Below, piece after piece: positions 152-12,933 of a stretch of DNA of 32,000 bases (its first letter is position 1; every line of letters starts with the position of its first letter). Under the pieces are notes generated by a model. The model had not been told where the DNA came from. It did not search any database and saw only the letters and a list, made by a program, of their open reading frames with translations. The stretch is from the NCBI RefSeq assembly GCF_003324675.1, contig NZ_CP030918.1, forward strand, positions 1,260,001-1,292,000. The letters are read 5' to 3'. The position numbers and the translations under genes were made by a program. The DNA comes from Paracoccus suum. GTDB taxonomy: Bacteria > Pseudomonadota > Alphaproteobacteria > Rhodobacterales > Rhodobacteraceae.

Positions 152-171
152 ACATCCGCCGCGGCCCCGGC

Positions 172-594
172 TTACCAGTGGCCGGTGTTCGGCATGCTCG
201 CCCAAGGCTCTTGCGGGGGCAGGTGGCCGTCCTGCAGCAATTCGACCGAAACATTGTCGGGGCTGCGCACAAAGGCCATGTGCCCGTCGCGCGGCGGGCG
301 GTTGATCGTCACCCCGGCATCCATCAGCTTCTGGCAGAGGCCGTAAATATCGTCGGTGCGATAGGCGAGGTGGCCGAAATGCCGGCTGTCCGACGGCAGG
401 CCATCGTCGCCATCCCAATTGTAGGTCAGCTCGACCGGCGCCTCGGGTTGGTCAGGCGGCGCCATGAACACCAGCGTAAAGCGGCCCTTTTCATTCTCCA
501 TCCGCTGGATTTCCTCCAGCCCCAGCAGTTTGAAAAAGGCCATCGTCTTATCAAGGTCCAGCACCCGGACCATCGTGTGTTCGTAACGCAGCAT
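172..594 (-). CDS. gloA: Lactoylglutathione lyase (glyoxalase I), VOC superfamily
   Basis: The 140-aa ORF begins [21 protein letters not shown] and contains ELTYNWD and FGHLAY, typical of GloA. Its length matches single-domain-pair glyoxalase I. Confidence 0.85.
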
Positions 595-737
595 GGCTCA
601 CCATCCCAGTTGCAGCCCAAGGGCCGGATAGGCGCAATGTCGCACGGAGCGGGGACGAGGGCCACCGCCCACAGCCCGTTGCGCGAATCCCCCGAAGCCG
701 CCACAAGATGTGCCAACACCCCACGCCGGAGCCTGCC

Positions 738-1643
738 ATGACCCTAACCCCTGACCAGACCGCCGAAATCGACGCCGCCCGCGCGGCCGAATCGCGCACC
801 CTGCGGCCGGTCAGCCCGGGGATGGAGGCGCGGCTCTATACCGCGCATCCGGTGCTCGATCACGGCTTCGTCCGGGTTATCGACTACATGGGCGACGATT
901 CGGCCATCGTGCAGGCGGCGCGGGTCAGCTACGGCCGCGGCACGAAGAAGGTCAGCGACGATGCCGGGCTGATCGCCTACCTGATGCGGCACTGGCACTC
1001 GACCCCGTTCGAGATGTGCGAGGTCAAGTTCCACGTCAAGCTGCCGATCTTCGTCGCCCGCCAGTGGATCCGACACCGCACGGCAAATGTGAACGAGATC
1101 AGCGCCCGCTATTCGATTCTCGACCGCGAATTCTATATTCCCGCGCCCGAAAACCTCGCCGCGCAGTCCGCCTCGAACCGGCAGGGCCGGGGCGAGGCGC
1201 TGGAGGGGGACGAGGCGCAGCGCGTCCTAGACTGGCTGCGCGACGACGCGACGCGCGCCTATGACCATTACGAGGCGATGCTGGGGCAGGAAGGGCAGCA
1301 GGGCCTCGCCCGCGAACTCGCCCGCATGAACCTGCCCGCGAATGTCTATACGCAATGGTACTGGAAGTGCGACCTGCACAACCTGTTCCATTTCCTGCGC
1401 CTGCGCGCCGACCCCCACGCGCAATTCGAGATCCGCGTCTATGCCGAGGCCATGGCCGAAATCACTGCCGACTGGGTGCCGCTCGCCTACGCCGCCTTCG
1501 AGGACTACCGCATGGGCGGCGCGCAATTGTCAGCGAAGGGCGTGAAGGTGCTGAAACGGCGCTTGCGCGGGGAGGTGGTCTCGCAGGAGGATAGCGGGAT
1601 GAGCAAGGGCGAGTGGCGGGAGTTTGAGGGGGTGTGGGGGTGA
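738..1643 (+). CDS. thyX: FAD-dependent thymidylate synthase ThyX
   Basis: The ThyX signature [15 protein letters not shown] (RHRxxSxNxxSxR-type) is present, and about 300 aa is a typical ThyX length. I chose the start at ATG 738 (MTLTPDQ) rather than the ORF-track start at 708. Confidence 0.9.
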
Positions 1644-3199
1644 GGGAACTTGCACAGATCGAAAACTTCGGCGGAACCGACGCAGACGATGATCCACTTT
1701 TATTGGTCGCCTTTGAGGATCACCGCTCCTATATCGCAGTGCACGATCTGCGGCGATACGTCGTTTTAGGTCGCAAGGGATCAGGTAAGACCGCGATTTT
1801 CCGCAAGCTCTTAAACACGGATACCGGGAATGTTCTTGTGGAAGGCCACGTTTTTTCTGATTATCCGTGGCACCACCACGCTATGCAAAGATCGACAGGA
1901 GTCCCAGACGAGCTTTGCTATGTGTCGAGCTGGGAGTACCTCATAAATGTGTCGTTCGCAAAGATTTTATTGAATAGAGATGAGTCATATCCTTATGCGG
2001 AGGAGGCTTGGGACAGTGCTGCTCTCCTAGAGAGGTTCATTGTCGATACCTATGGTGTGCGTGATCCGCTAATCAGCAACGTGTTTACGCCATCCCATGG
2101 CATATCGGTGTCCGGAAAATTAGGCATTGATCTAAAGCTAGCAAGTCTCGAAGTTGCGGCGGAGCGAGTGCCCTTTGATCATTTGCCGACTATTGTTCAA
2201 GAGGTAAATCGCAACCTTTTGAACGCAATTTTGACGTCAGCGAACCCTGACATAAAATACATTGTTTGTTTTGATGAACTGGACTTGGGTTTCACGCCTG
2301 GGGACGCGGATTATGCTCACCGCCTCATGGGCTTGTTGGTAGCCGCGAAGCGCTTCAACAGTGACGCGAGGAAGATGAAGCGCTCTCTTCTCGTAGTCGT
2401 ATTCTTACGAACTGACATATTTAACATTCTGCGATTTGAAGATAGAAACAAAATCCTTGAGGGAGGAGCTACCACCATTTCATGGGACACTACTCCAGCT
2501 TCTGACAAGTTGTCATCTTTGATGGAGAAGCGTTTCGCTAGTGTCTTAGCTGCTGGCCGGAACGTGGCTTGGGATGATGTCTTCGAAGATCAGGACATGA
2601 CAAGCCGTCAGAGAAAATACTCGCATATGCTTGATCGGACATTTCTTCGACCAAGAGATATGATCAAATTTTGCAATGAGGTTCTTGTCGCCTATAAAGT
2701 CCGTGGCGGTTCTGGGAAGTTCTCCAACGCAGATATTATTAGCGCCCGCAGGCCCTATTCTCTTTACCTTTATAGGGAGCTAGAAGATGAGCTTCCAAAA
2801 CACTATCCAGATTACGCGATATATTTCGACATCGTTAAAGAAGTGGGAGTAACTCAATTCTCGAAAAATGCTTTTTCACTAGCATATGATCAGCATAAAG
2901 GCAGGTTATCAGAGGAAGTGCCGGCAGACGCGGTTCTGGCAAGACTTTTTGAGTTCTCCATCATTGGGTACTTAAAGTCAGGCGGAGGAGCAGTCGGTAG
3001 TCTATATGTATGGAAGCATAAGGACTCTGACGCAGTCTTCGACGATCGGGCACTCTGGTACCGAGTGCACTACGGGTTGGTAGAGTATTTGGAGCTGAGG
3101 AGACGCCAAAGGCGAAGGGAGCGTCTGGGAGTTGAGGAGTGCACTGACGTTGAGGCTGCCGTGGATGAGTTAGAAGCGGACGAGGTTCCTGACAACTAA
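1634..3199 (+). CDS. Orphan P-loop NTPase, KAP/Sll1717-like, with no recognisable effector domain; candidate defence or abortive-infection protein
   Basis: This is a 521-aa uninterrupted ORF in a low-GC segment. Walker A is GRKGSGKT (aa 46-53, nt 1769-1792) and Walker B is IVCFDELD (aa 210-217, nt 2261-2284). A sensor-like strand [10 protein letters not shown] and the motif [12 protein letters not shown] (aa 337-348) follow; the latter resembles the PRxxKRFxN motif of KAP-family NTPases as I recall it. Codons are A/T-rich at the third position, unlike every neighbour. The start is GTG 1634 or GTG 1640, and GAGGGGG at 1626-1632 favours 1640. Both starts overlap the thyX stop at 1641-1643. Confidence 0.85.
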
Positions 3200-3219
3200 G
3201 CTTCAAGCTTGAAACAACC
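1644..3219. other. Low-GC islet of ~1.6 kb, probably horizontally acquired, carrying a single gene
   Basis: Hand GC counts per 60-nt line are: 1681-1740 50%, 1921-1980 40%, 2401-2460 30%, 2761-2820 40% and 3121-3180 58%. Flanking lines 1501-1560 and 3301-3360 are both 63%. There is no integrase, transposase or tRNA at either edge. Confidence 0.75.
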
Positions 3220-3260
3220 CCCGTCCTCGTGCCACACTCCCCTCACACCCACGAGACGGG
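3220..3260 (+). promoter_or_regulatory. Stem-loop at the right-hand islet junction, 10 nt upstream of the operon start codon
   Basis: CCCGTCCTCGTG (3220-3231) pairs with CACGAGACGGG (3250-3260), giving 11 bp with one bulged C and an 18-nt C-rich loop. No T-run follows, so it is not a classic intrinsic terminator. It could be an attenuator, an operator or a recombination scar. Confidence 0.45.
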
Positions 3261-3269
3261 ACCGCCTGG

Positions 3270-5555
3270 ATGAAAACTCTCTGCCTCGGCGGAGGCCCCG
3301 CGGGCCTCTATTTCGCCATCTCGATGAAGCTCCGCGATCCCTCGCACGAGGTGACGGTGGTGGAGCGCAACAAGGCCAATGACACCTTCGGCTGGGGCGT
3401 CGTCCTCAGCGATGACGCGCTCTCGCGGCTGCAGCGGAACGATCCGGTCTCGGCCGAGGCGATCCGCAGCAAGTTCGCCTATTGGGACGACATCGCCGTC
3501 ATCAAGGAGGGCGAGCGCATCGTCTCGGGCGGGCATGGCTTTGCCGGGATCGGGCGCAAGCAGATGCTCATCATCCTGCAGGCCCGCGCGCGCGAGCTGG
3601 GGGTAGATCTGCAGTTCGAGACGACCTTCCGCTCGGCCGAGGAATACCGCGCCGAATATGACCTGGTGATCGGCTGCGACGGCCTCAACAGCGTCGTGCG
3701 CAAGGAATACGAGGACGTCTTCAAGCCGGACATCGACATGCGGCTGGCCAAGTTCATCTGGCTCGGCACGCATCAGAAGTTCGACGACGCCTTCACCTTC
3801 ATCTTCGAGAAGGCGCCCGAGGGCTGGGTCTGGGCCCATGTCTACCAGTTCGACGCCGACACCGCGACCTTCATCGTCGAGACGACGCAGGAGGTGTGGG
3901 AGCGCATGGGCTTCGCCGACATGAGCAAGGAGGAGATCGTCGAGAAGTGCCGGCAGCTCTTTGCCGACCACCTCGGCGGTCACGAGCTGATGTCGAACGC
4001 GGCGCATCTGCGCGGCTCGGCGGTGTGGTCGAACTTTCCGCGCGTGATCTGCGAGCGGTGGTACCACGAGAATGTCGTGCTGATGGGCGATGCCGCGGCG
4101 ACCGGGCATTTCTCGATCGGCTCGGGCACGCGGCTGGCCCTCGACAGCGCCATCGCGCTGGCCGACTACCTGCACAGCGAGCCGACGATGGAGGCCGCGT
4201 TCGAGCGTTACCAGGACGAGCGTCGGGTCGAGGTGCTGCGCCTGCAATCGGCCGCACGCAACAGCCTCGAATGGTTCGAGGAGGTGGAGCGTTACCTCGG
4301 CTTTGACCCGGTGCAGTTCAACTATTCGCTGCTGACCCGCAGCCAGCGTATCAGCCACGAGAACCTGCGCCTGCGCGATCCGGAATGGCTGCGTGGGGCC
4401 GAGGACTGGTTCCAGGGCCAGGCCGGGGGCCAGCCCGGCCGCGCGCCGATGTTCGCGCCGTTCCAGCTGCGCGACATGGCGCTGAAGAACCGCGTCGTCG
4501 TCTCGCCCATGGCGCAGTACAAGGCCGTGGACGGGACCCCGACCGACTGGCACCTGGTCCATTACGGCGAGCGCGCCAAGGGCGGCGCGGGTCTGGTCTA
4601 TACCGAGATGACCTGCGTCAGCCCCGAGGGTCGCATCACCCCCGGCTGCCCCGGCCTCTACACGCCCGAACACGAGGCCGCCTGGCGCCGGATCGTGGAC
4701 TTCATCCATGCCGAGACCGACGCCAAGGTCTGTTGCCAGATCGGCCATTCCGGCCGCAAGGGCAGCACGAACATCGGCTGGGAGGGGATGGACAAGCCGC
4801 TGAAGGACGGCAACTGGCCGCTGCTGTCTGCCTCGGCCATCGCGTGGTCGCCCGGCAACGCGGTGCCCAAGGCGATGGACCGCGCCGACATGGACATGGT
4901 GAAGAGCGAGTTCGTGGCCTCGACCGAGATGGCGGCCCGCTGCGGCTTCGACATGGTCGAGTTGCACGCCGCGCACGGCTATCTGATCTCGTCCTTCCTC
5001 AGCCCCGCCTCGAACATCCGCACCGACGAATATGGCGGCAGCCTGGAAAACCGGCTGCGCTATCCGCTGGAGGTTTTCCGGGCCATGCGCGCCGTCTGGC
5101 CCGCCGAAAAGCCGATGTCGGTGCGGATCAGCGCCAATGACTGGCTGGGCGACGAGGGCGTCACCCCGGCCGAAGCGGTGCAGATCGCCCGCGCCTTCCA
5201 CGAGGCGGGGGCCGACATCATCGACGTGTCGGCTGGCCAGACCAGTATCGACGGCAAGCCGGTTTATGGCCGGATGTTCCAGACCCCGTTCAGTGACCGC
5301 ATCCGCAACGAGCTGCACATCCCGACCATGGCGGTGGGGAACATCACCGACGCGGACCAGGTCAATTCGATCCTGATGGCGGGCCGGGCGGATCTGGTCT
5401 GCCTCGCGCGCCCGCATCTCGCGAACCCGTACTGGACGCTGCATGCAGCAACCGCGCTGGGCGACAAGGCGACGCCCTGGCCGCAGCCCTATGCCGCCGG
5501 GGGCGATCAGGCGCGCCGCCTGCGCGAGCGCGAGCAGGAGCAGTTCCGTGCCTGA
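3270..5555 (+). CDS. Bifunctional aryl-CoA monooxygenase/reductase (2-aminobenzoyl-CoA monooxygenase/reductase or salicylyl-CoA 5-hydroxylase type)
   Basis: The 761-aa fusion has an N-terminal FAD aromatic hydroxylase with [10 protein letters not shown] (GxGxxG), the DG motif [14 protein letters not shown] and the GD motif [16 protein letters not shown]. The C-terminal half is an Old Yellow Enzyme-type NADH:flavin oxidoreductase ([37 protein letters not shown]). This fusion architecture is characteristic of that family. Confidence 0.85.
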
Positions 5556-6288
5556 CCTTGCGGGCCGCGGCGTGCTGATCACCGGCGGTGGCAGCGGCGC
5601 CGGTGCCGACCTCGCCCGCGGCTTTGCCGACGCCGGGGCACGGGTCGTGATTGCTGGCCGGCGGCAGGGCCCGCTCGATGCCGTGGCGGCCGCCACTGGC
5701 GCCGCGGCGATCACCGCGGACGTCACCGACGAGGCCAGCGTTGCCGCCATGTTCGACGCCGCCGGCCCGGTGCAGATCGTCATCGCCAATGCCGGCGCCG
5801 CCGACAGCGCCCCATTTGCCCGCACCACGCTGGAGCAATGGAACGCCATGCTGGCCGTCAACCTGACCGGCGTGTTCCTGACGCTGCGCGAAGGGCTGCG
5901 GCGGCTGGATGGCTGGGGCCGGCTAATCAGCGTCGCCTCTACCGCGGGCCTCAAGGGCTATGCCTATGTCGCCCCCTATGTTGCTGCGAAACATGGCGTG
6001 GTGGGCCTGACCCGCAGCCTCGCGCAGGAGATTGCGCGCGGGCCGGTCACCGCCAATGCCCTGTGCCCCGGTTTTCTGGATACCGAGATGACCGACCGCT
6101 CGGTCGATAACATCATGCGGACGACCGGCCGCGACCGCGAGGCGGCGCTGAAGGCGCTGACCGCGACCAATCCCCAGCGCCGGCTGATCGCCCCGGCCGA
6201 GGTGACCGCCGCCGCCCTTTGGCTGTGCGGGCCGGGCTCCGAAGGGATCAACGGCCAGGCAATCGCCATCGCCGGGGGCGAGGTCTGA
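5548..6288 (+). CDS. Short-chain dehydrogenase/reductase (SDR), probably 3-hydroxyacyl-CoA dehydrogenase-like
   Basis: It has the cofactor motif [14 protein letters not shown] (IANAGA) and the catalytic YxxxK (YVAAKHGV). The start is GTG 5548, in frame and overlapping the upstream stop by 8 nt. The upstream part of track ORF 5443-6288 overlaps the preceding gene and was discarded. Confidence 0.8.
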
Positions 6289-6743
6289 TGGACAGCGCGG
6301 CCGAATCCCTCTCCAAGCGCAGGCTGCGGGCGTGGATCCGGCTTCTGGGCGTCACCCGCCATGCCGAGGCGCAGTTGCGCGACTACCTGCGCCGCGAGCA
6401 TGGCACGACCTTGCCGCGCTTTGACGTGATGGCCGCACTTTGGCGACGCAGCGCCCCGGTGCCAATGGGTGAGTTGAGCCGGATGCTGCTGATCTCGAAC
6501 GGCAATGCCACTGACGTGGTATCCCGGCTGGAGGCCGAGGGGCTCGCCCTTCGCACGCCCTCGTCCGAGGATCGGCGCACCGTGCTGGTTGCCCTGACGG
6601 ACGCCGGCATCGCCGCGTTCGAGGGAATGGCCGAGGGTCACGAGGGCGAGGTCGACCAGCTGCTTGGCACCCTCGATGGAACAGAACTGGACACGCTGCG
6701 GGCAATTCTGCGGAAAGTCTCGCCGGGAAGGGATCGGGAATGA
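6288..6743 (+). CDS. MarR-family transcriptional regulator
   Basis: This 151-aa protein has the winged-helix pattern [10 protein letters not shown]...[32 protein letters not shown] typical of MarR. ATG 6288 overlaps the upstream TGA by 1 nt (TGATG). Confidence 0.8.
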
Positions 6744-7564
6744 CATTCAACGGCACCACCATGGCGGGCCTGGCCCCGAGACATTTCCTCTGGTCGGTGG
6801 ACGGGCGCGTGGCGACGATCCGGCTCGACCGTCCGGACCGCAAGAACCCGCTGACCTTCGACAGCTATGCCGAACTGCGCGATACCTTTCGCGGGCTCGT
6901 CTATGCCGACGATGTCGATGTGGTGGTGATCGCCTCGAACGGGGGGAATTTCTGCTCGGGCGGGGATGTGCATGACATCATTGGTCCGCTGGTCGGGATG
7001 GACATGCGCGATCTGCTGGCCTTTACCCGCATGACCGGCGATCTGGTCAAGGCGATGCTGAACTGCGGCAAGCCGATCATCGCCGCTGTGGATGGCGTCT
7101 GCGTCGGCGCGGGGGCCATCATGGCTATGGCGAGCGATCTGCGCCTCGCCACGCCCGCGGCGAAATGCGCCTTCCTGTTCACCCGGGTCGGCCTTGCCGG
7201 TTGCGACATGGGCGCCTGCGCCATGCTGCCGCGCATCATCGGCCAAGGCCGCGCGGCCGAGTTGCTCTATACTGGCCGGGTCATGACCGCGGACGAAGGC
7301 GCCGCCTGGGGCTTCTGGAACGCGCTGCATCCGGCGGAAAGCCTCGACGAGGCCGCGCTGACGCTCGCCGGGCGCATCGCCTCGGGCCCGACCTTCGCGC
7401 ATGGCATCACCAAGACCCAGCTGAACCAGGAATGGAACATGGGCCTCGATCAGGCGATCGAGGCCGAGGCGCAGGCCCAGGCCATCTGCATGCAGACCCA
7501 GGATTTCGAGCGCGCCTACCGCGCGTTCGTCGCCAAGGAAAAGCCGGTGTTCGAGGGTAACTGA
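6740..7564 (+). CDS. Enoyl-CoA hydratase/isomerase (crotonase) family protein
   Basis: The 274-aa protein has crotonase features: FCSGGDV, the oxyanion-hole region [21 protein letters not shown], and ELLYTGR. It has an ATGA overlap with the marR stop. Confidence 0.85.
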
Positions 7565-7594
7565 CCCGGCGCGAGTGCCCGCGCCCGGAGATAT

Positions 7595-8761
7595 TTGGAT
7601 CAGGTCGACATGGATCGCAGCTTTCTGGACTGGCCGTTTTTTGAGGATCGCCACCGCGTATTCCAGCGCGACCTGAACGCATGGGCCGGGCAGACGCTGG
7701 GTCACGTCGATCATTCGGACACTGACGCCGCCTGCCGCGATCTGGTCACGCGGCTCGGGGCTGGGGGCTGGTTGCAGCCGACGGCGGGCGATGCGCTCGA
7801 CGTTCGCACCCTGTGCCTCGCGCGTGAGACGCTGGCCCGTCACGACGGGCTGGCTGATTTCGCCTTTGCGATGCAGGGCCTCGGCATGGGCGCGATCAGC
7901 CTCTTCGGCACCGAGCAGCAGCGCGCCTGGCTGGAGCGGACGCGCGAGGGCCACGCCATTGCCGCGTTCGCACTGACCGAACCCGGCGCGGGATCGGACG
8001 TCGCCTCGACCGCCACGACCGCCCGCCGCGAGGGCGAGGAATGGGTGCTGGATGGCGAAAAGACCTACATCTCGAACGGCGGCATCGCCGATGTCTATGT
8101 CGTCTTTGCCCGTACGGGCGAGGCGCCCGGCGCGCGGGGCCTCTCGGCCTTCCTGATGCCGGCAAACACGCCCGGTCTCGAAATTCTCGATCGCATCGAC
8201 GTCATGGCGCCGCACCCGCTGGCGCATTTGCGCCTGAACGGCCTGCGCTTGCCGGTCGACGCTCTGATTGGGCAGCCCGGGCAGGGCTTCAAGATCGCCA
8301 TGTCGGTGCTGGACGTGTTCCGCTCGACCGTCGGCGCGGCCGCGCTGGGCTTCGCCCGACGCGCGCTGGACGAGGCGCTCGCCCGCGCCAGCCGCACCCG
8401 CGCCGACGGCGGCACCCTTGCCGGATTCCAGATGGTGCAGGGCCACCTGGCCGACATGGCGCTGCAGATCGACGCTGCAGCGCTGCTGGTCTATCGTGCC
8501 GCCTGGACCAAGGACATGGGCGCGGCCCGGGTCAGCCGCGAGGCGGCGATGGCCAAGCTCTATGCCACCGAGGCCGCGCAGAAAGTCATCGACATGGCCG
8601 TCCAGTTGCACGGCGGCGACGGCGTGCGCAGCGGCCAGATCGTCGAGCGCCTCTACCGCGAAATCCGCGCGCTGCGCATCTACGAGGGCGCCAGCGACGT
8701 CCAGCGGGTCGTCATCGCCCGCGCCGTCCTCGACCAGTTTGCCGCATCGGATGCCTGCTGA
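7595..8761 (+). CDS. Acyl-CoA dehydrogenase family protein
   Basis: ACAD motifs are present: [19 protein letters not shown] and the C-terminal [15 protein letters not shown]. The start is ambiguous between TTG 7595 (5 nt after GGAG 7587-7590) and ATG 7610 (MDRSFLDW). Confidence 0.85.
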
Positions 8762-9183
8762 TGCCCTATTCCCGCGTGATCCAGGTCGAGTTCAACCACT
8801 GCGACCCCGCCGGAATCGTGTTCTATCCGCGGTTTCTGGAATTCGCGAACTCGGTGACCGAAAACTTCTTCGCCGATGTGGTCGGCCGCAGCTACGCCCG
8901 GATCATCGCGGACCGCAGCGGCGTGCCGACCGTCAGCCTCGAATGCGATTTCCGTCACCCCTCGCGCCTTGGCGACCGGCTGACGATGAAACTACGGGTC
9001 ACTGGCATCGGGCGCTCCAGCCTCGATCTGGCGATCACCGGACGAGGGAAGGGCGAGGCCGAGCCCCGCTTTTCCATTGCCAAGCGGGTCGCCTTTATCG
9101 ACGCCGCCGCCATGCGATCCACCCCCTGGCCCGAAGAAATGCGCGCCAACCTTGCCGCCGCGATGAAAGAGGACACGCCATGA
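8761..9183 (+). CDS. Hotdog-fold acyl-CoA thioesterase (4-hydroxybenzoyl-CoA thioesterase/YbgC-like)
   Basis: The 140-aa protein begins [25 protein letters not shown]. The early D plus the GIVFY pattern is typical of 4HBT-class thioesterases. ATG 8761 overlaps the upstream TGA by 1 nt. Confidence 0.75.
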   Translation: MPYSRVIQVEFNHCDPAGIVFYPRFLEFANSVTENFFADVVGRSYARIIADRSGVPTVSLECDFRHPSRLGDRLTMKLRVTGIGRSSLDLAITGRGKGEAEPRFSIAKRVAFIDAAAMRSTPWPEEMRANLAAAMKEDTP

Positions 9184-9587
9184 CCGACAGCCCGCACGAG
9201 TTCCTGAACCCCAAAAGCTGGACCCCCGCAGTCGGCTATTCCAACGGCGTCGCAGCGCGGGGCCGCCAGATTTTTCTGGGCGGGTTGATCGGCTGGGACG
9301 GCCAGCAGCAGTGGCATGCGGATGACTTCGTCGGCCAGGTCGAGCAGACGCTCGCCAATATCGTTGCCGTTCTGGCCGAGGCCGGCGCCCGCCCGGAACA
9401 TCTGGTGCGCCTGACTTGGTATGTGACCGACAAGCGCGCCTATCTCGACAATTTGCGCGAGGTCGGCCGCGTCTATCGCCAGCACCTTGGCAAGCATTTC
9501 CCGGCCATGGCCATGGTCCAGGTCGTCGCACTGGTCGAAGACCGCGCCATGGTCGAGATCGAGGCGACCGCCGTCGTCCCGGACTGA
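9180..9587 (+). CDS. RidA/YjgF-family reactive enamine/imine deaminase
   Basis: The 135-aa protein contains YSNGVAARG..IFLGG, EQTLANIVAVLEAAG-like, LTWYVTD and a C-terminal VEIEATAVVP, all typical of YjgF/RidA. It has an ATGA overlap with the upstream stop. Confidence 0.8.
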   Translation: MTDSPHEFLNPKSWTPAVGYSNGVAARGRQIFLGGLIGWDGQQQWHADDFVGQVEQTLANIVAVLAEAGARPEHLVRLTWYVTDKRAYLDNLREVGRVYRQHLGKHFPAMAMVQVVALVEDRAMVEIEATAVVPD

Positions 9588-9627: not shown

Positions 9628-11262
9628 ATGCAGAACGAACCGCTCGGACCGACAGGCCATGTCGATACCTTCACCCGCGACCACCTGCCGCCGGCGGATC
9701 TGTGGCCGCTGCTCGATCTGGGTGATTTCCGCTATCCCGAATGGCTGAACGTCGGATTCGAGCTGACCGACGCCATGGTGGCCCGCGGCTTCGGCGATAA
9801 CACCGCACTGATCGGCAACGGGCGCCAGCGGACCTACAAGGAACTGACCGACTGGACCAACCGCATCGCCCATGCACTGGTCGAGGATTACGGGGTCAAG
9901 CCCGGCAACCGCGTCCTGATCCGCTCGGCCAACAACCCGGCGATGGTCGCTTGCTGGCTGGCTGCGACCAAGGCCGGGGCGGTGGTGGTCAACACCATGC
10001 CGATGCTGCGCGCGGGCGAGCTGGTCAAGATCATCGACAAGGCGCAGATCACCATCGCCCTCTGCGACACGCGCCTGATGGACGAGATGACCGAGGCCGG
10101 ACTGCGCAGCGACGTGCTGCAGACAGTGATCGGTTTTGACGGCAGCGCCAATCACGACGCCGAGCTTGACCGCGCCGCGCTGGGCAAGCCGGTGCGCTTT
10201 GATTGCGTGCGTACCGGCCGCGACGACGTCGCCCTGCTGGGCTTTACCTCGGGCACCACGGGCGCCCCCAAGGCAACGATGCATTTCCATCGCGACATCC
10301 TGATCATCGCCGACGGCTATGCGCGCGAGGTCCTGGACGTGCAGCCCTCGGACGTGTTCATCGGCTCGCCACCGCTCGCCTTTACCTTCGGCCTTGGCGG
10401 CCTCGCGGTCTTCCCGCTGCGCTTCGGGGCGGCAGCCTGCCTGCTGGAGACTGCCTCGCCGCCGAACATGATCGAGATCATCCAGAAATACCGCGCCACG
10501 GTCTGTTTCACTGCGCCCACCGCCTATCGCGCCATGCTGAACGCGATGGAGGAGGGGGCCGACCTTGGCAGCCTGCGCGCCGCCGTCTCGGCCGGCGAGA
10601 CGTTGCCTTCGCCGGTCTATGAGGATTGGCAGCGCAAGACCGGGCGGCCGATGCTGGACGGCATCGGGTCGACCGAAATGCTGCACATCTTCATCACCAA
10701 CCGCTTTGACGATCACCGGCCCGGCTGCACCGGCCGCCCGGTCGGCGGCTATCAGGCCAAGGTGGTCGATGCCGAGGGGGCCGAGGTGCCGCGCGGTACC
10801 ATCGGCAAGCTGGCTGTGCGCGGGCCGGTCGGCTGCCGCTATCTGGACGATCCCGACAAGCAGCGCGAATACGTCCAGAACGGCTGGAACCTGACTGGTG
10901 ACGTGTTCGTCCAGGACGAGGAAGGCCGCTTCCATTTCGCCGCCCGCAACGACGGCATCATCCTGTCGGCGGGCTACAATATCGCCGGACCGGAGGTCGA
11001 GGCCGCGCTGCTGTCCCATCCAGCCATCGCCGAATGCGCCGTCGTCGGCGCGCCTGACCCTGAGCGGGGCGAGATCGTGCAGGCCCATGTCGTGCTGAAA
11101 CCCGGCTATGAGGGCGATGCGCTGCTGGTTCGTGACATCCAGGACCACGCAAAGCGTGTCATCGCCCCCTACAAATACCCGCGCAGCGTCCTGTTCTGTG
11201 CCGCCCTGCCCAAGACCGAGAGTGGCAAGATCCAGCGCTTCCGCCTGAAGGACGCGCCATGA
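9628..11262 (+). CDS. AMP-forming aryl-CoA ligase (2-aminobenzoate/benzoate-CoA ligase family)
   Basis: The AMP-binding motif is [14 protein letters not shown], with GSTE, YRTGD-like NLTGDV and a terminal [11 protein letters not shown]. The start is probably ATG 9628, 6-7 nt after GGAGG (9617-9621); ATG 9622 is the alternative. Confidence 0.85.
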
Positions 11263-12203
11263 GCGACCGCGACCCGCCCAATGCTGCACCGCAGGGCGAT
11301 TCCACCAAGGCGCCCGGCTGTCCCCATGCTGCGAACCCGCGTCCGGAGGGCTATGACGGTGACGGTGTTCCGCGGCGCTACGATCCGGCGACCGAGGGCG
11401 CGCGCATGGGCTTTGAAGGCCGCATGTCCTACGGCGACTACCTCCATCTTGACCCGATCCTGTCCGCCCAGCATCCGCTGTCCACGGCGCATGACGAGAT
11501 GCTGTTCATCATCCAGCACCAGACTTCAGAGCTGTGGATGAAGCTGGCGCTGCACGAGCTCGCCGCCGCTCGCACCGCCATCGCCGAGGATCGCCTGCGC
11601 GCCGCATTCAAGGTGCTCACCCGCGTCTCGCGCATTTTCGAGCAGCTGAACAGCGCCTGGGACGTATTGCGCACCATGACGCCGAGCGAATACCAGCAGT
11701 TTCGGCCCAGCCTGGCCGAAAGCAGCGGCTTTCAAAGCTACCAGTACCGGCTGATCGAATACATGGTCGGCAACCGCAACGTCGCGCTGCTGAAACCGCA
11801 TGCCCACCGCCCTGACCTGCTCAAGGCGCTGGAGGCAGAACTGGAGCGGCCTTCGCTTTATGACGTGGTCCAGGCGCTTGCCGCCCGACGCGGACTGCCG
11901 ATTCCGGCGGACATCCTGACCCGCGATCACCGCCTCGCCTGGACTGCCGACGCGCGCGTGGAAGCCGCATGGTCCGCGGCCTATCGCGACCCGGAGAGCC
12001 ACTGGGAGCTGTACGAGCTGGCTGAGAAGCTGGTCGACTTCGAGGATTATTTCCGCCGCTGGCGCTTTAACCACGTCACCACGGTCGAGCGGATCATAGG
12101 CTTCAAGCGCGGCACCGGGGGCACCGGCGGCGTGCATTATCTGCGCAAGATGCTGGACACGGAGCTGTTCCCCGAACTCTGGCGCTTGCGCACAGGGCTA
12201 TAG
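11259..12203 (+). CDS. kynA: Tryptophan 2,3-dioxygenase
   Basis: The 314-aa protein contains [39 protein letters not shown] and [12 protein letters not shown], which are diagnostic of bacterial TDO. It has an ATGA overlap with the ligase stop. Confidence 0.9.
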
Positions 12204-12282
12204 GGCCCGCATCCGGGCTTTATACCAGGGCTGGAATGGTCCCTTTGTGGTGCAGCGCCAACCGCTGCCGAGGAGCCCGCCG

Positions 12283-12933
12283 ATGACGCCCACCATCACT
12301 GCCTTTGCACAATCCCCCGACCGCGGCCGGGGCTTGGCCCGCGACATGCGCCTGCGCTGGGCGCTCGAAGAGGTCGGCCAACCCTACGACGTTCGCCTCC
12401 TGACCATGGAGGAGATGAAGCAACCTGCGCATCTGGCGCTGAATCCCTTCGGGCAGATCCCCACCTACGAGGATGGCGATCTCGCGCTGTTCGAATCGGG
12501 CGCGATCATCCTGCAGATCGCCACCCAGCACCCCGGCCTTCTGCCCGATGATCCGGCCGCGAGGGCCCGCGCCATCGAATGGATGTTTGCCGCGCTGAAC
12601 ACAGTCGAGCCGCCCATCGTCGCGCGCTCGATGGCCACCATCACTGAGCGCGACGAGCCGTGGTATGACGCGCGCCTGCCAATTCTCACCGAAAGGGTGA
12701 ACACACGGCTGCGCGCACTGTCGGCACGGCTGGGAGAGGCGGATTGGCTGGACGGAGAATTCAGCGCCGGCGATCTGCTGATGGTCAATGTGCTGGAGCG
12801 TGCAAAGGCGATGGATATGCTCGCGGACTATCCGAACCTCGACGCCTATGTCGCCCGTGCTGAGGCAAGGCCCGCGTTCCGCCGCGCCTTTGACGCCCAA
12901 CGGGCGGTATTTACTGCAGCTATGTCCGGCTGA
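12283..12933 (+). CDS. Glutathione S-transferase family protein
   Basis: The N-terminal thioredoxin-like GST motif is LNPFGQIPTYEDGDLALFESGAIILQIA. AGGAG at 12271-12275 lies 7 nt before ATG 12283. Confidence 0.8.
   Translation: MTPTITAFAQSPDRGRGLARDMRLRWALEEVGQPYDVRLLTMEEMKQPAHLALNPFGQIPTYEDGDLALFESGAIILQIATQHPGLLPDDPAARARAIEWMFAALNTVEPPIVARSMATITERDEPWYDARLPILTERVNTRLRALSARLGEADWLDGEFSAGDLLMVNVLERAKAMDMLADYPNLDAYVARAEARPAFRRAFDAQRAVFTAAMSG

Follow-up and report, generated by a model that had tools for sequence, protein, structure and literature searches.

What is a single GC-poor gene doing directly behind thyX in the chromosome of Paracoccus suum? The question was raised by a reading, made from the letters alone, of a 32,000-nucleotide stretch of this chromosome (contig NZ_CP030918.1, positions 1,260,001 to 1,292,000; the whole stretch is called the window below). 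That original prediction singled out one open reading frame as an orphan KAP/Sll1717-like P-loop NTPase and as a candidate single-gene defence or abortive-infection system. Our analysis indicates that the gene probably encodes a stand-alone anti-phage ATPase of the FunZ/Sll1717 family, working by phage exclusion or abortive infection, and that it was probably acquired horizontally into a defence slot at the 3' end of thyX.

The first part of the answer concerns the kind of protein. The NCBIfam model NF047389 ("P-loop ATPase, Sll1717 family") matches the window protein with 286.9 bits (E=3.4e-85) against a cut-off of 75, the alignment joining residues 12-486 to positions 1-454 of the 454 in the model. 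The "Sll1717-like" call was thus right, and "P-loop ATPase, Sll1717 family" is also the name that NCBI itself gives the protein. A full-length match at this E value to a curated family model places the reading frame far above chance. The window protein and the Fun(Z) protein of bacteriophage P2 both fall in phrog_13260. Pfam returned only sub-threshold P-loop matches for the window protein, and a search against PDB sequences returned no match. The DS-41 equivalog model NF053860 was missed (22.8 bits against a cut-off of 370, residues 280-421 only). Judged by sequence, the protein is of a known kind, a member of the FunZ/Sll1717 family that is neither a DS-41 nor a KAP protein. Its stand-alone form of about 500 amino acids (aa), with no fused effector, fits that family, and none of the three family branches carries a nuclease, TIR, SIR2, protease, or transmembrane domain according to Pfam, as the original prediction had found for the window protein. 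Nothing was found in the literature under the name "Sll1717."

The name "FunZ," carried by one homologue, led further. By tblastn of phage records it was traced to the bacteriophage P2 gene fun(Z) (Z/fun, NP_046777.1, 528 aa), whose record notes that the cloned gene blocks the growth of T5 and confers sensitivity to 5-fluorodeoxyuridine (FUdR), and that it is a nonessential gene of lysogenic conversion. P2 Fun(Z) scores 209.3 bits over its full length on NF047389. When a profile of the window protein's own family was aligned to it with hhalign, residues 19-494 matched residues 22-524 with 97.5% probability (E=5e-12), and direct BLASTP gave 6e-13. The founding member has been known for decades, which does away with the description of the system as uncharacterised. 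The two proteins share NF047389 and phrog_13260, are collinear end to end at about 520 aa, stand alone without an effector domain, and are encoded in variable cargo hotspots by genes AT-richer than their replicons (for P2 fun(Z), 32.8% GC against 52.2%). The lysogenic-conversion genes of P2 have long been said to be unusually AT-rich; fun goes unmentioned in both the OLD paper and the lysogeny-transcriptome paper. The two proteins differ in that the N-terminal FGGxDADxD and YPWHxH motifs of the P. suum clade are not conserved in P2 Fun(Z). Their genes differ as well: that of P2 resides in a prophage and is transcribed on its own, that of P. suum is chromosomal and coupled to thyX.

A weak NCBIfam match to "DS41_1_antiphage" pointed to a second relative, DS-41 ("AAA2," WP_033812887.1). 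This single 502-aa gene of E. coli was validated in the DefensePredictor study (Science 2026, PMC13092281), where it protected against T4, Bas1, Candy, Bas63, Bas3, Bas69, and Bas19 by 2.3 to 5.3 logs, and where a remote link to the Avs1B STAND ATPase was drawn. Its sequence, available in part from the supplement, clears NF047389 with 92.2 bits. Like the P. suum gene it is a single gene whose product has about 500 aa. Walker A, Walker B (DxxD), SW(D/N), and a PR(D/E)-[LIM]-IK lid motif follow in collinear order, but the sensor-like arginine is missing (FVWDAV in DS-41 against FLRTDI). Because P2 Fun(Z) and DS-41, both anti-phage, pass the same curated model, the P. suum gene is itself a probable anti-phage gene. 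By these comparisons the three proteins represent distant branches of one family, the anti-phage experiments covering the two branches other than that of P. suum.

The second part of the answer lies in the locus, whose elements are as follows (residue numbers throughout refer to the 521-aa frame).

738..1643 (start at 708 or 738), + strand: thyX, FAD-dependent thymidylate synthase, 301 aa, the conserved left anchor (synteny, P0121).
1627..1643, + strand: coupling junction GAGGGGGTGTGGGGGTGA, with GTG 1640 over TGA 1641-1643.
1640..3199, + strand: FunZ/Sll1717-family P-loop ATPase gene (NF047389; P0001; phrog_13260, 4e-47); its longest reading frame runs from GTG 1634.
1644..3174, no strand assigned: foreign low-GC cargo segment (by composition; the sequence shared with other Paracoccus genomes breaks off at the thyX stop and is picked up again near 3175).
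3175..3269, + strand: right junction, host sequence with a shared TAA stop, a palindrome, and a C-rich tract upstream of an oxidoreductase operon (blastn, comparison).

The reading frame is an intact one of 521 aa on the + strand (1634..3199, GTG start), as had been described. The NCBI version (P0001, Paracoccus suum, 100% identity) has 519 aa, matching the GTG at 1640. Its foreign composition was likewise borne out: the gene has 48.3% GC against 66.3% in the remaining window, and it is the sole GC trough in the 32 kb. The figure of 30-50% GC given earlier was somewhat too low, 300-nucleotide (nt) windows within the gene ranging from 43% to 51%. GC at third codon positions is 50.8%, compared with 87% in thyX and 91% in the downstream gene; the remark that codons end in A/T therefore caught a real contrast (49% in the gene against 9% in a host gene) but overstated it, as only half of them do. 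The islet contains no second gene, tRNA, Rfam match, flanking repeats, or att-like repeats, and no terminator was found 3' of the gene.

The left junction accounts for how such a gene would be expressed. The GTG at 1640 overlaps the TGA of thyX (1641-1643) as GTGA, leaving no intergenic space between thyX and the gene and hence no room for a promoter of its own. Junction sequences were compared in five genomes; the last thyX codons provide both a Shine-Dalgarno-like GAGGGGG and the GTG at which the cargo gene starts. Translation of the cargo gene is coupled to thyX, and its expression signals are borrowed from thyX. The native upstream region, which had been proposed for cloning with the gene, accordingly holds no intergenic DNA of the gene's own, and the idea that it carries a promoter finds no support. 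Five sigma-70-like promoter matches fall within the gene (window 1860-2890, both strands) where shuffled sequences lead one to expect 1.1. Such matches are usual when foreign, AT-rich DNA sits in a GC-rich genome, and they could cause spurious internal or antisense transcription.

The right junction is equally sharp. Against Paracoccus sp. S-4012, in which the downstream operon is also present, blastn matches cover window positions 170-1645 and 3175-5556. A 12-nt perfect palindrome, TTCAAGCTTGAA, stands at 3202-3213 inside a shared CTTCAAGCTTGAAACA block and is unique in the window. The last 8 codons of the reading frame, the TAA, and the palindrome are common to genomes with unrelated cargo (L093 8176-8217; L091 at about 8758), and the S-4012 cargo terminates at the same TAA in the same frame as the P. 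suum gene. Either the cargo was replaced inside a former FunZ tail, or the shared end belongs to an operator of the downstream operon. The right junction as a whole is probably the regulatory region of the oxidoreductase operon.

What lies between these two junctions varies from genome to genome. The comparison covered ten Paracoccus genomes, that is, two FunZ carriers (the window and L081) and eight further thyX loci (L091-L096, L102, and L103), and nine different contents were found directly after the thyX stop. In P. sanguinis the slot holds a FunZ homologue (69% aa identity) with the same GTGA overlap after thyX and a different downstream gene. The contents of the others are listed here.

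After thyX in one genome: type II restriction-modification (RM) pair, an MT-A70 methylase (MTase_II, 8e-91) and a BglII-type endonuclease.
L091 6897-8753, P. contaminans: broken ParA-like gene and SIR2 fragments (ThsA/LmuA-like; ThsA, 6e-13).
L093:6911-8197: 429-aa protein, GC-poor.
L096:5903-7171: 423-aa protein, GC-poor.
L094:6143-6781: 213-aa protein, GC-poor.
L103:4902-5573: 224-aa protein.
L102:4969-5373 and 5560-6147: proteins of 134 and 195 aa.
P. niistensis: slot empty save for a hairpin.

Homology between the genomes ends exactly at the thyX stop codon, and in most of them the cargos are GC-poor. In P. contaminans the ParA-like ATPase is split into pieces of 65 and 255 aa, and the SIR2 fragment has 142 aa. 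The slot shows the pattern of a defence hotspot: alternative unrelated cargos, recognised defence genes among them, and an empty state. No recombinase, repeats, or tRNA were found at it. Junctions were inspected in seven cargo-bearing genomes (two with FunZ and five others), and in four of the seven the GTG embedded in the thyX end serves as the start codon (window 1640, L081 999, L091 6903, and L096 5903). Three unrelated protein types begin there, namely FunZ, the ParA-like ATPase, and the 423-aa protein, from which it follows that the essential thyX gene supplies both ribosome-binding site and start codon. Core-gene-flanked hotspots of a similar kind are known from P2 (Z/fun and old/tin) and from Neisseria meningitidis, where FunZ is one of three alternative cargos of flexible island locus 31; they too have one position with alternative AT-rich cargos that include RM, SIR2, and FunZ genes. 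The Paracoccus slot is unlike them in that it abuts the stop codon of an essential gene and its cargos reuse a start codon embedded there.

Several of the other cargos resisted identification. NCBIfam gave no credible match for the 429-, 423-, and 213-aa proteins (for the 423-aa protein only Nramp, at 17.9 against 50 bits), PADLOC none for the 429-aa protein of L093, and PDB sequences none for the 429-, 423-, and 224-aa proteins; a Pfam match is recorded for none of these cargos. Neither of the two cargos of about 425 aa (429 and 423 aa) is a relative of the other or of FunZ. By their association with the hotspot, the alternative cargos may be regarded as candidate new defence genes. As to how the two FunZ copies arrived, pS (the proportion of synonymous differences) is 0.34-0.41 in the flanking host genes against 0.86 between the copies, a comparison confounded by the extreme codon bias of the hosts; the divergence is compatible with separate FunZ alleles entering the same slot in place of simple vertical descent. 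The central proposal of a single-gene defence ATPase on a foreign islet thus finds support in P2 Fun(Z), in DS-41, and in a variable slot that also houses RM and SIR2 genes.

Outside the slot, synteny with annotated relatives indicates a glyoxalase gene upstream of thyX (window 172-594, - strand). Downstream it indicates a gene for a 761-aa FAD_binding_3/Oxidored_FMN oxidoreductase (3270-5555, + strand), followed at 5443-8761 by genes for an SDR, a MarR regulator, an enoyl-CoA hydratase, and an acyl-CoA dehydrogenase. These downstream genes make up a catabolic operon for aromatic/acyl-CoA compounds. In P. sanguinis and P. contaminans an alpha/beta hydrolase gene and fab genes replace the catabolic operon at the corresponding place.

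The family at large is tightly conserved, and the window protein is far from the orphan it was taken for. An exhaustive profile search (E<=1e-3) found 4,007 clusters at 50% identity, nearly all of 480-510 aa, and a word-indexed search gave more than 899 matches. Members typically at 45-50% identity occur in Proteobacteria, Actinomycetota, Acidobacteriota, Planctomycetota, Spirochaetota, Bacillota, and some archaea. We surveyed the neighbourhoods of 80 related genomic loci. No neighbour cluster recurs across phyla, and hence there is no conserved partner gene, in keeping with the single-gene islet of P. suum and with the earlier statement that it lacks a partner. The largest neighbour cluster comprises 9 loci, every one from an actinomycete, where GntR, FtsK-like, and integrase genes of the kind usual in integrative elements are found. 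Neighbours within 2.5 kb are enriched in transposase and integrase domains and also include matches to RM methyltransferases, DarT, Drt3a, and AriA-like proteins; those 5.5-8 kb away belong to ordinary metabolism. Compared with its flanks, the gene has the higher AT content in 74 of 75 loci (its GC averaging 14 points lower), and copies on viral contigs share this AT-richness.

A few members depart from the usual length (P0241, P0250, P0252, and P0317). Among these rare longer forms, one has a glycosyltransferase-like C-terminal half, two share a beta-rich extension of about 150 aa, and one carries a pair of helical adaptor-like repeats as an insertion behind Walker A. A Ralstonia "funZ protein" (L098:6578-8695, 706 aa) is extended by about 140 aa at its N terminus and ends in a basic tail.

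This distribution brings up the alternative that fares best, namely that the family serves mobile elements themselves, by excluding rival plasmids or conjugative elements or by addiction or maintenance, and was merely deposited in the P. suum chromosome. Among 94 carriers in plasmid records, 84 are conjugative. Further copies lie in the integrative-element-like contexts of actinomycetes, amid insertion sequence (IS) elements, and in prophages: an IncC Vibrio plasmid carries one near IS3 and AbiEi, pXO2 of B. anthracis has FunZ beside a SIR2 protein and an integrase, and there are copies in a P2-like Klebsiella phage and on viral contigs, the Klebsiella Peduoviridae copy being near tail-fibre genes in an arrangement not identical to the Z position of P2. 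Defence genes, however, travel on mobile elements just as typically, the relatives that have been tested act against phages, and near the P. suum copy there is no integrase, transposase, repeat, or tRNA and no recognisable mobile element. We therefore consider a selfish or competitive role unlikely.

Position suggests another alternative, a regulator or sensor of thymidylate or nucleotide metabolism that works with ThyX. The GTGA overlap with thyX is found in two Paracoccus species, P2 Fun(Z) confers FUdR sensitivity, and in two unrelated loci from different phyla the family gene adjoins a ribonucleotide reductase gene (L016, with the family gene at 7791-9509 and the reductase at 9677-12466 on the minus strand, and L080). 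Taken together, the thyX and ribonucleotide reductase adjacencies and the FUdR phenotype hint at a link with nucleotide metabolism; the hint is post hoc, and insertion near conserved essential genes is probably what lies behind it. Because unrelated cargos (the ParA-like and 423-aa proteins) use the same junction and its GTG start, and because thyX is near none of the 80 other loci, the adjacency to thyX is best taken as positional. RM genes share the slot as well, and foreign GC content and sporadic distribution are unlike those of a housekeeping partner. A role as partner of ThyX seems to us quite improbable.

Could the gene instead be a non-functional hitch-hiker or a decaying remnant, retained only through the thyX transcript? 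It lacks a promoter that it could call its own, the junction sequence supplies its last codons, and the broken ParA-like gene and SIR2 fragments of P. contaminans show that cargo in this slot does decay. The P. suum frame, however, is full length and intact, and it retains the residues and modules listed here, which also underlie the mechanism considered below.

1769..1792, + strand: Walker A GRKGSGKT, residues 46-53, with K52 (motif check, alignments).
2261..2284, + strand: Walker B IVCFDELD, residues 210-217 (motif check, alignments).
2393..2422, + strand: strand and turn, residues 254-263, with R259 and D261 nearly invariant (alignments).
2642..2677, + strand: lid motif, residues 337-348, with P340 and R341 invariant in the superfamily (alignments).
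2855..3109, + strand: C-terminal alpha/beta module of winged-helix-like topology, residues 408-492 (model, mean predicted local distance difference test score [pLDDT] 92.6).
3110..3196, + strand: disordered, charged C-terminal tail, residues 493-521 (model, pLDDT <50).

Every motif that had been quoted from the sequence lies at the residues given for it. The residues invariant in all three branches are GxxGxGK, DxxD, N242, W284, P340-R341, and G481, and the window protein has all of them. Walker A is unchanged as GxxGxGK even in comparison with P2 Fun(Z), the FunZ of pXO2, and DS-41. In Walker B the invariant acidic residues of the superfamily are D214 and D217; the position of E215, which had been chosen as a key residue for mutation, is not conserved, being Q in most close relatives and E, Q, G, D, or K among distant members. 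R259 may be a sensor-1-like arginine ending strand beta-4, as in STAND NTPases, and R341, within the helical lid, probably acts as an arginine of the sensor-2 type, to judge from the ORC/Cdc6-like fold of the model. Relative to the P. sanguinis copy, pN (the proportion of nonsynonymous differences) is 0.20 and pS is 0.86, with synonymous sites saturated; the gene is under purifying selection. With pN far below pS, the family-invariant residues kept, and a confident structure model, a decaying remnant is highly improbable.

The structure model itself places the protein in a broad class. The AlphaFold and Foldseek check that had been proposed yielded a confident model (pLDDT 82.4, predicted template modelling score 0.82) and an ORC/Cdc6-like class. 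The top PDB match is Cdc6/Orc1 (2qby_A, E=2e-5, probability 1.0), with an alignment spanning ATPase, lid, and winged helix, but with template modelling (TM) scores of just 0.38 and 0.49. Other structural matches in the PDB are ORC subunits and FtsH, with BREX BrxC also listed, and a search of BFVD gave only generic AAA matches (E>=5e-3). Family members have sub-threshold Pfam matches to nSTAND3 (0.0018-0.023), NACHT (7.5e-5, below cut-off), NB-ARC, ORC-CDC6-like, and AAA_16, and the match to PF24389 is also below threshold. With TM scores this low, the modelled likeness to ORC/Cdc6 and STAND proteins would hold at class level only. Residues 79-140 are modelled as soluble helices. The C-terminal module matched PDB structures weakly, nearly all of them winged helices, the Cdc6/Orc1 winged-helix domain included (TMq 0.45), which is suggestive of a winged helix that might serve as a putative nucleic-acid-binding or sensor domain.

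A membrane-associated KAP-family NTPase, the remaining alternative and the one favoured originally, shares an ASCE-type P-loop and a helical lid whose residues 337-348 resemble the PR-x-x-K-F-x-N-like motif of KAP proteins (a resemblance noted in the original prediction), but it is hardly credible and was rejected. PF07693 (KAP_NTPase) gave no match at E<=10 for the window protein, and at E<=0.05 it missed five further members of the family as well (P2 Fun(Z), DS-41, and three plasmid copies). The transmembrane insertion found in many KAP members is absent, no 19-residue Kyte-Doolittle window exceeding 1.27 and no transmembrane segment being present, and the nearest families, all below threshold, are the ORC/Cdc6-like and STAND-like ones named above.

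Several points weigh against the reading that the gene is an anti-phage ATPase, and they are best considered together. The experimental evidence comes from outside its own clade, whose members are 45-50% identical across phyla. P2 Fun(Z) is a remote relative at about 25% identity (22-25%), and its phenotype is on record for the cloned gene. DS-41 is tied to the window protein through the curated family model alone: hhalign of our own profile against DS-41 was weak (27.8%), and no pairwise similarity between DS-41 and Fun(Z) was detectable. The expectation that homologues would sit in defence islands held in part, with mobile genes and some defence genes enriched nearby, but the defence signal, while real, is modest, and several copies lie amid housekeeping genes. 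The winged-helix assignment hangs on Foldseek matches with E>=0.23. Finally, the window protein is covered by no model in PADLOC 2023, and the PADLOC run called for by the original prediction returned nothing better than PDC-M28C at E=0.004. Since the first ParA-like piece in the P. contaminans slot matches PDC-M28B of the same candidate system (1e-6), that weak match also means that PDC-M28 may contain a FunZ-like component.

If the anti-phage reading is correct, the protein would be a nucleotide switch of the ORC/Cdc6 or STAND sort, built from a P-loop core, a helical lid that bears the invariant PR motif, and a module at the C terminus that resembles a winged helix. The comparison with these classes has limits on both sides. 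They supply the best structural matches and appear to share an arginine at the end of beta-4 and a lid-plus-winged-helix layout, but the TM scores are low and no Pfam family reaches threshold; moreover, ORC/Cdc6 proteins are replication initiators, which the P. suum protein by its context is not, and Avs and NLR-like proteins have a repeat sensor domain (TPR, WD40, or LRR) and an N-terminal effector, both of which the P. suum protein lacks. In the uninfected cell the protein would stay idle. Upon infection, it might recognise a phage-specific cue through its helical or winged-helix parts, assemble on that cue in an ATP-dependent manner, and then either block phage DNA replication or expression directly or kill the cell, with no separate enzymatic effector domain. 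It could act by itself, by occupying the DNA of phage or host or oligomerising on it, or else by way of a host factor.

As the cue we would favour, speculatively, an abnormal DNA structure such as nicked or gapped DNA, because both phenotypes of P2 Fun(Z), T5 exclusion and FUdR sensitivity, involve DNA of this kind. T5 DNA bears site-specific nicks, and FUdR blocks thymidylate synthase, the ensuing thymidylate starvation yielding repair nicks and gaps.

Two further readings reach beyond the anti-phage assignment, and we regard them as rather doubtful. One is that the thyX end is a promoter-less expression slot, in which unrelated defence genes may be swapped in and out and translated from the Shine-Dalgarno sequence and GTG embedded in thyX, with no recombinase or repeats. 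If true, this would be an unrecognised way to keep immune cargo constitutively expressed and hard to silence. The other is that FunZ may sense thymidylate starvation or nicked or gapped DNA. If true, this would connect the two phenotypes of P2 Fun(Z), FUdR hypersensitivity and T5 exclusion, with the location of family genes beside thyX and ribonucleotide reductase.

The islet is well explained and represents no new kind of system. The analysis ties the anonymous annotation "Sll1717 family," which thousands of bacteria and some archaea carry in their genomes, to two anti-phage genes with experimental support, both of them for ATPases of about 500 aa with no recognisable effector. The P. suum locus offers a clean natural experiment, a single-gene cargo in a sharply bounded slot with sister genomes that carry RM, SIR2, or other genes in its place. 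For this large family, a concrete functional prediction has been gained.

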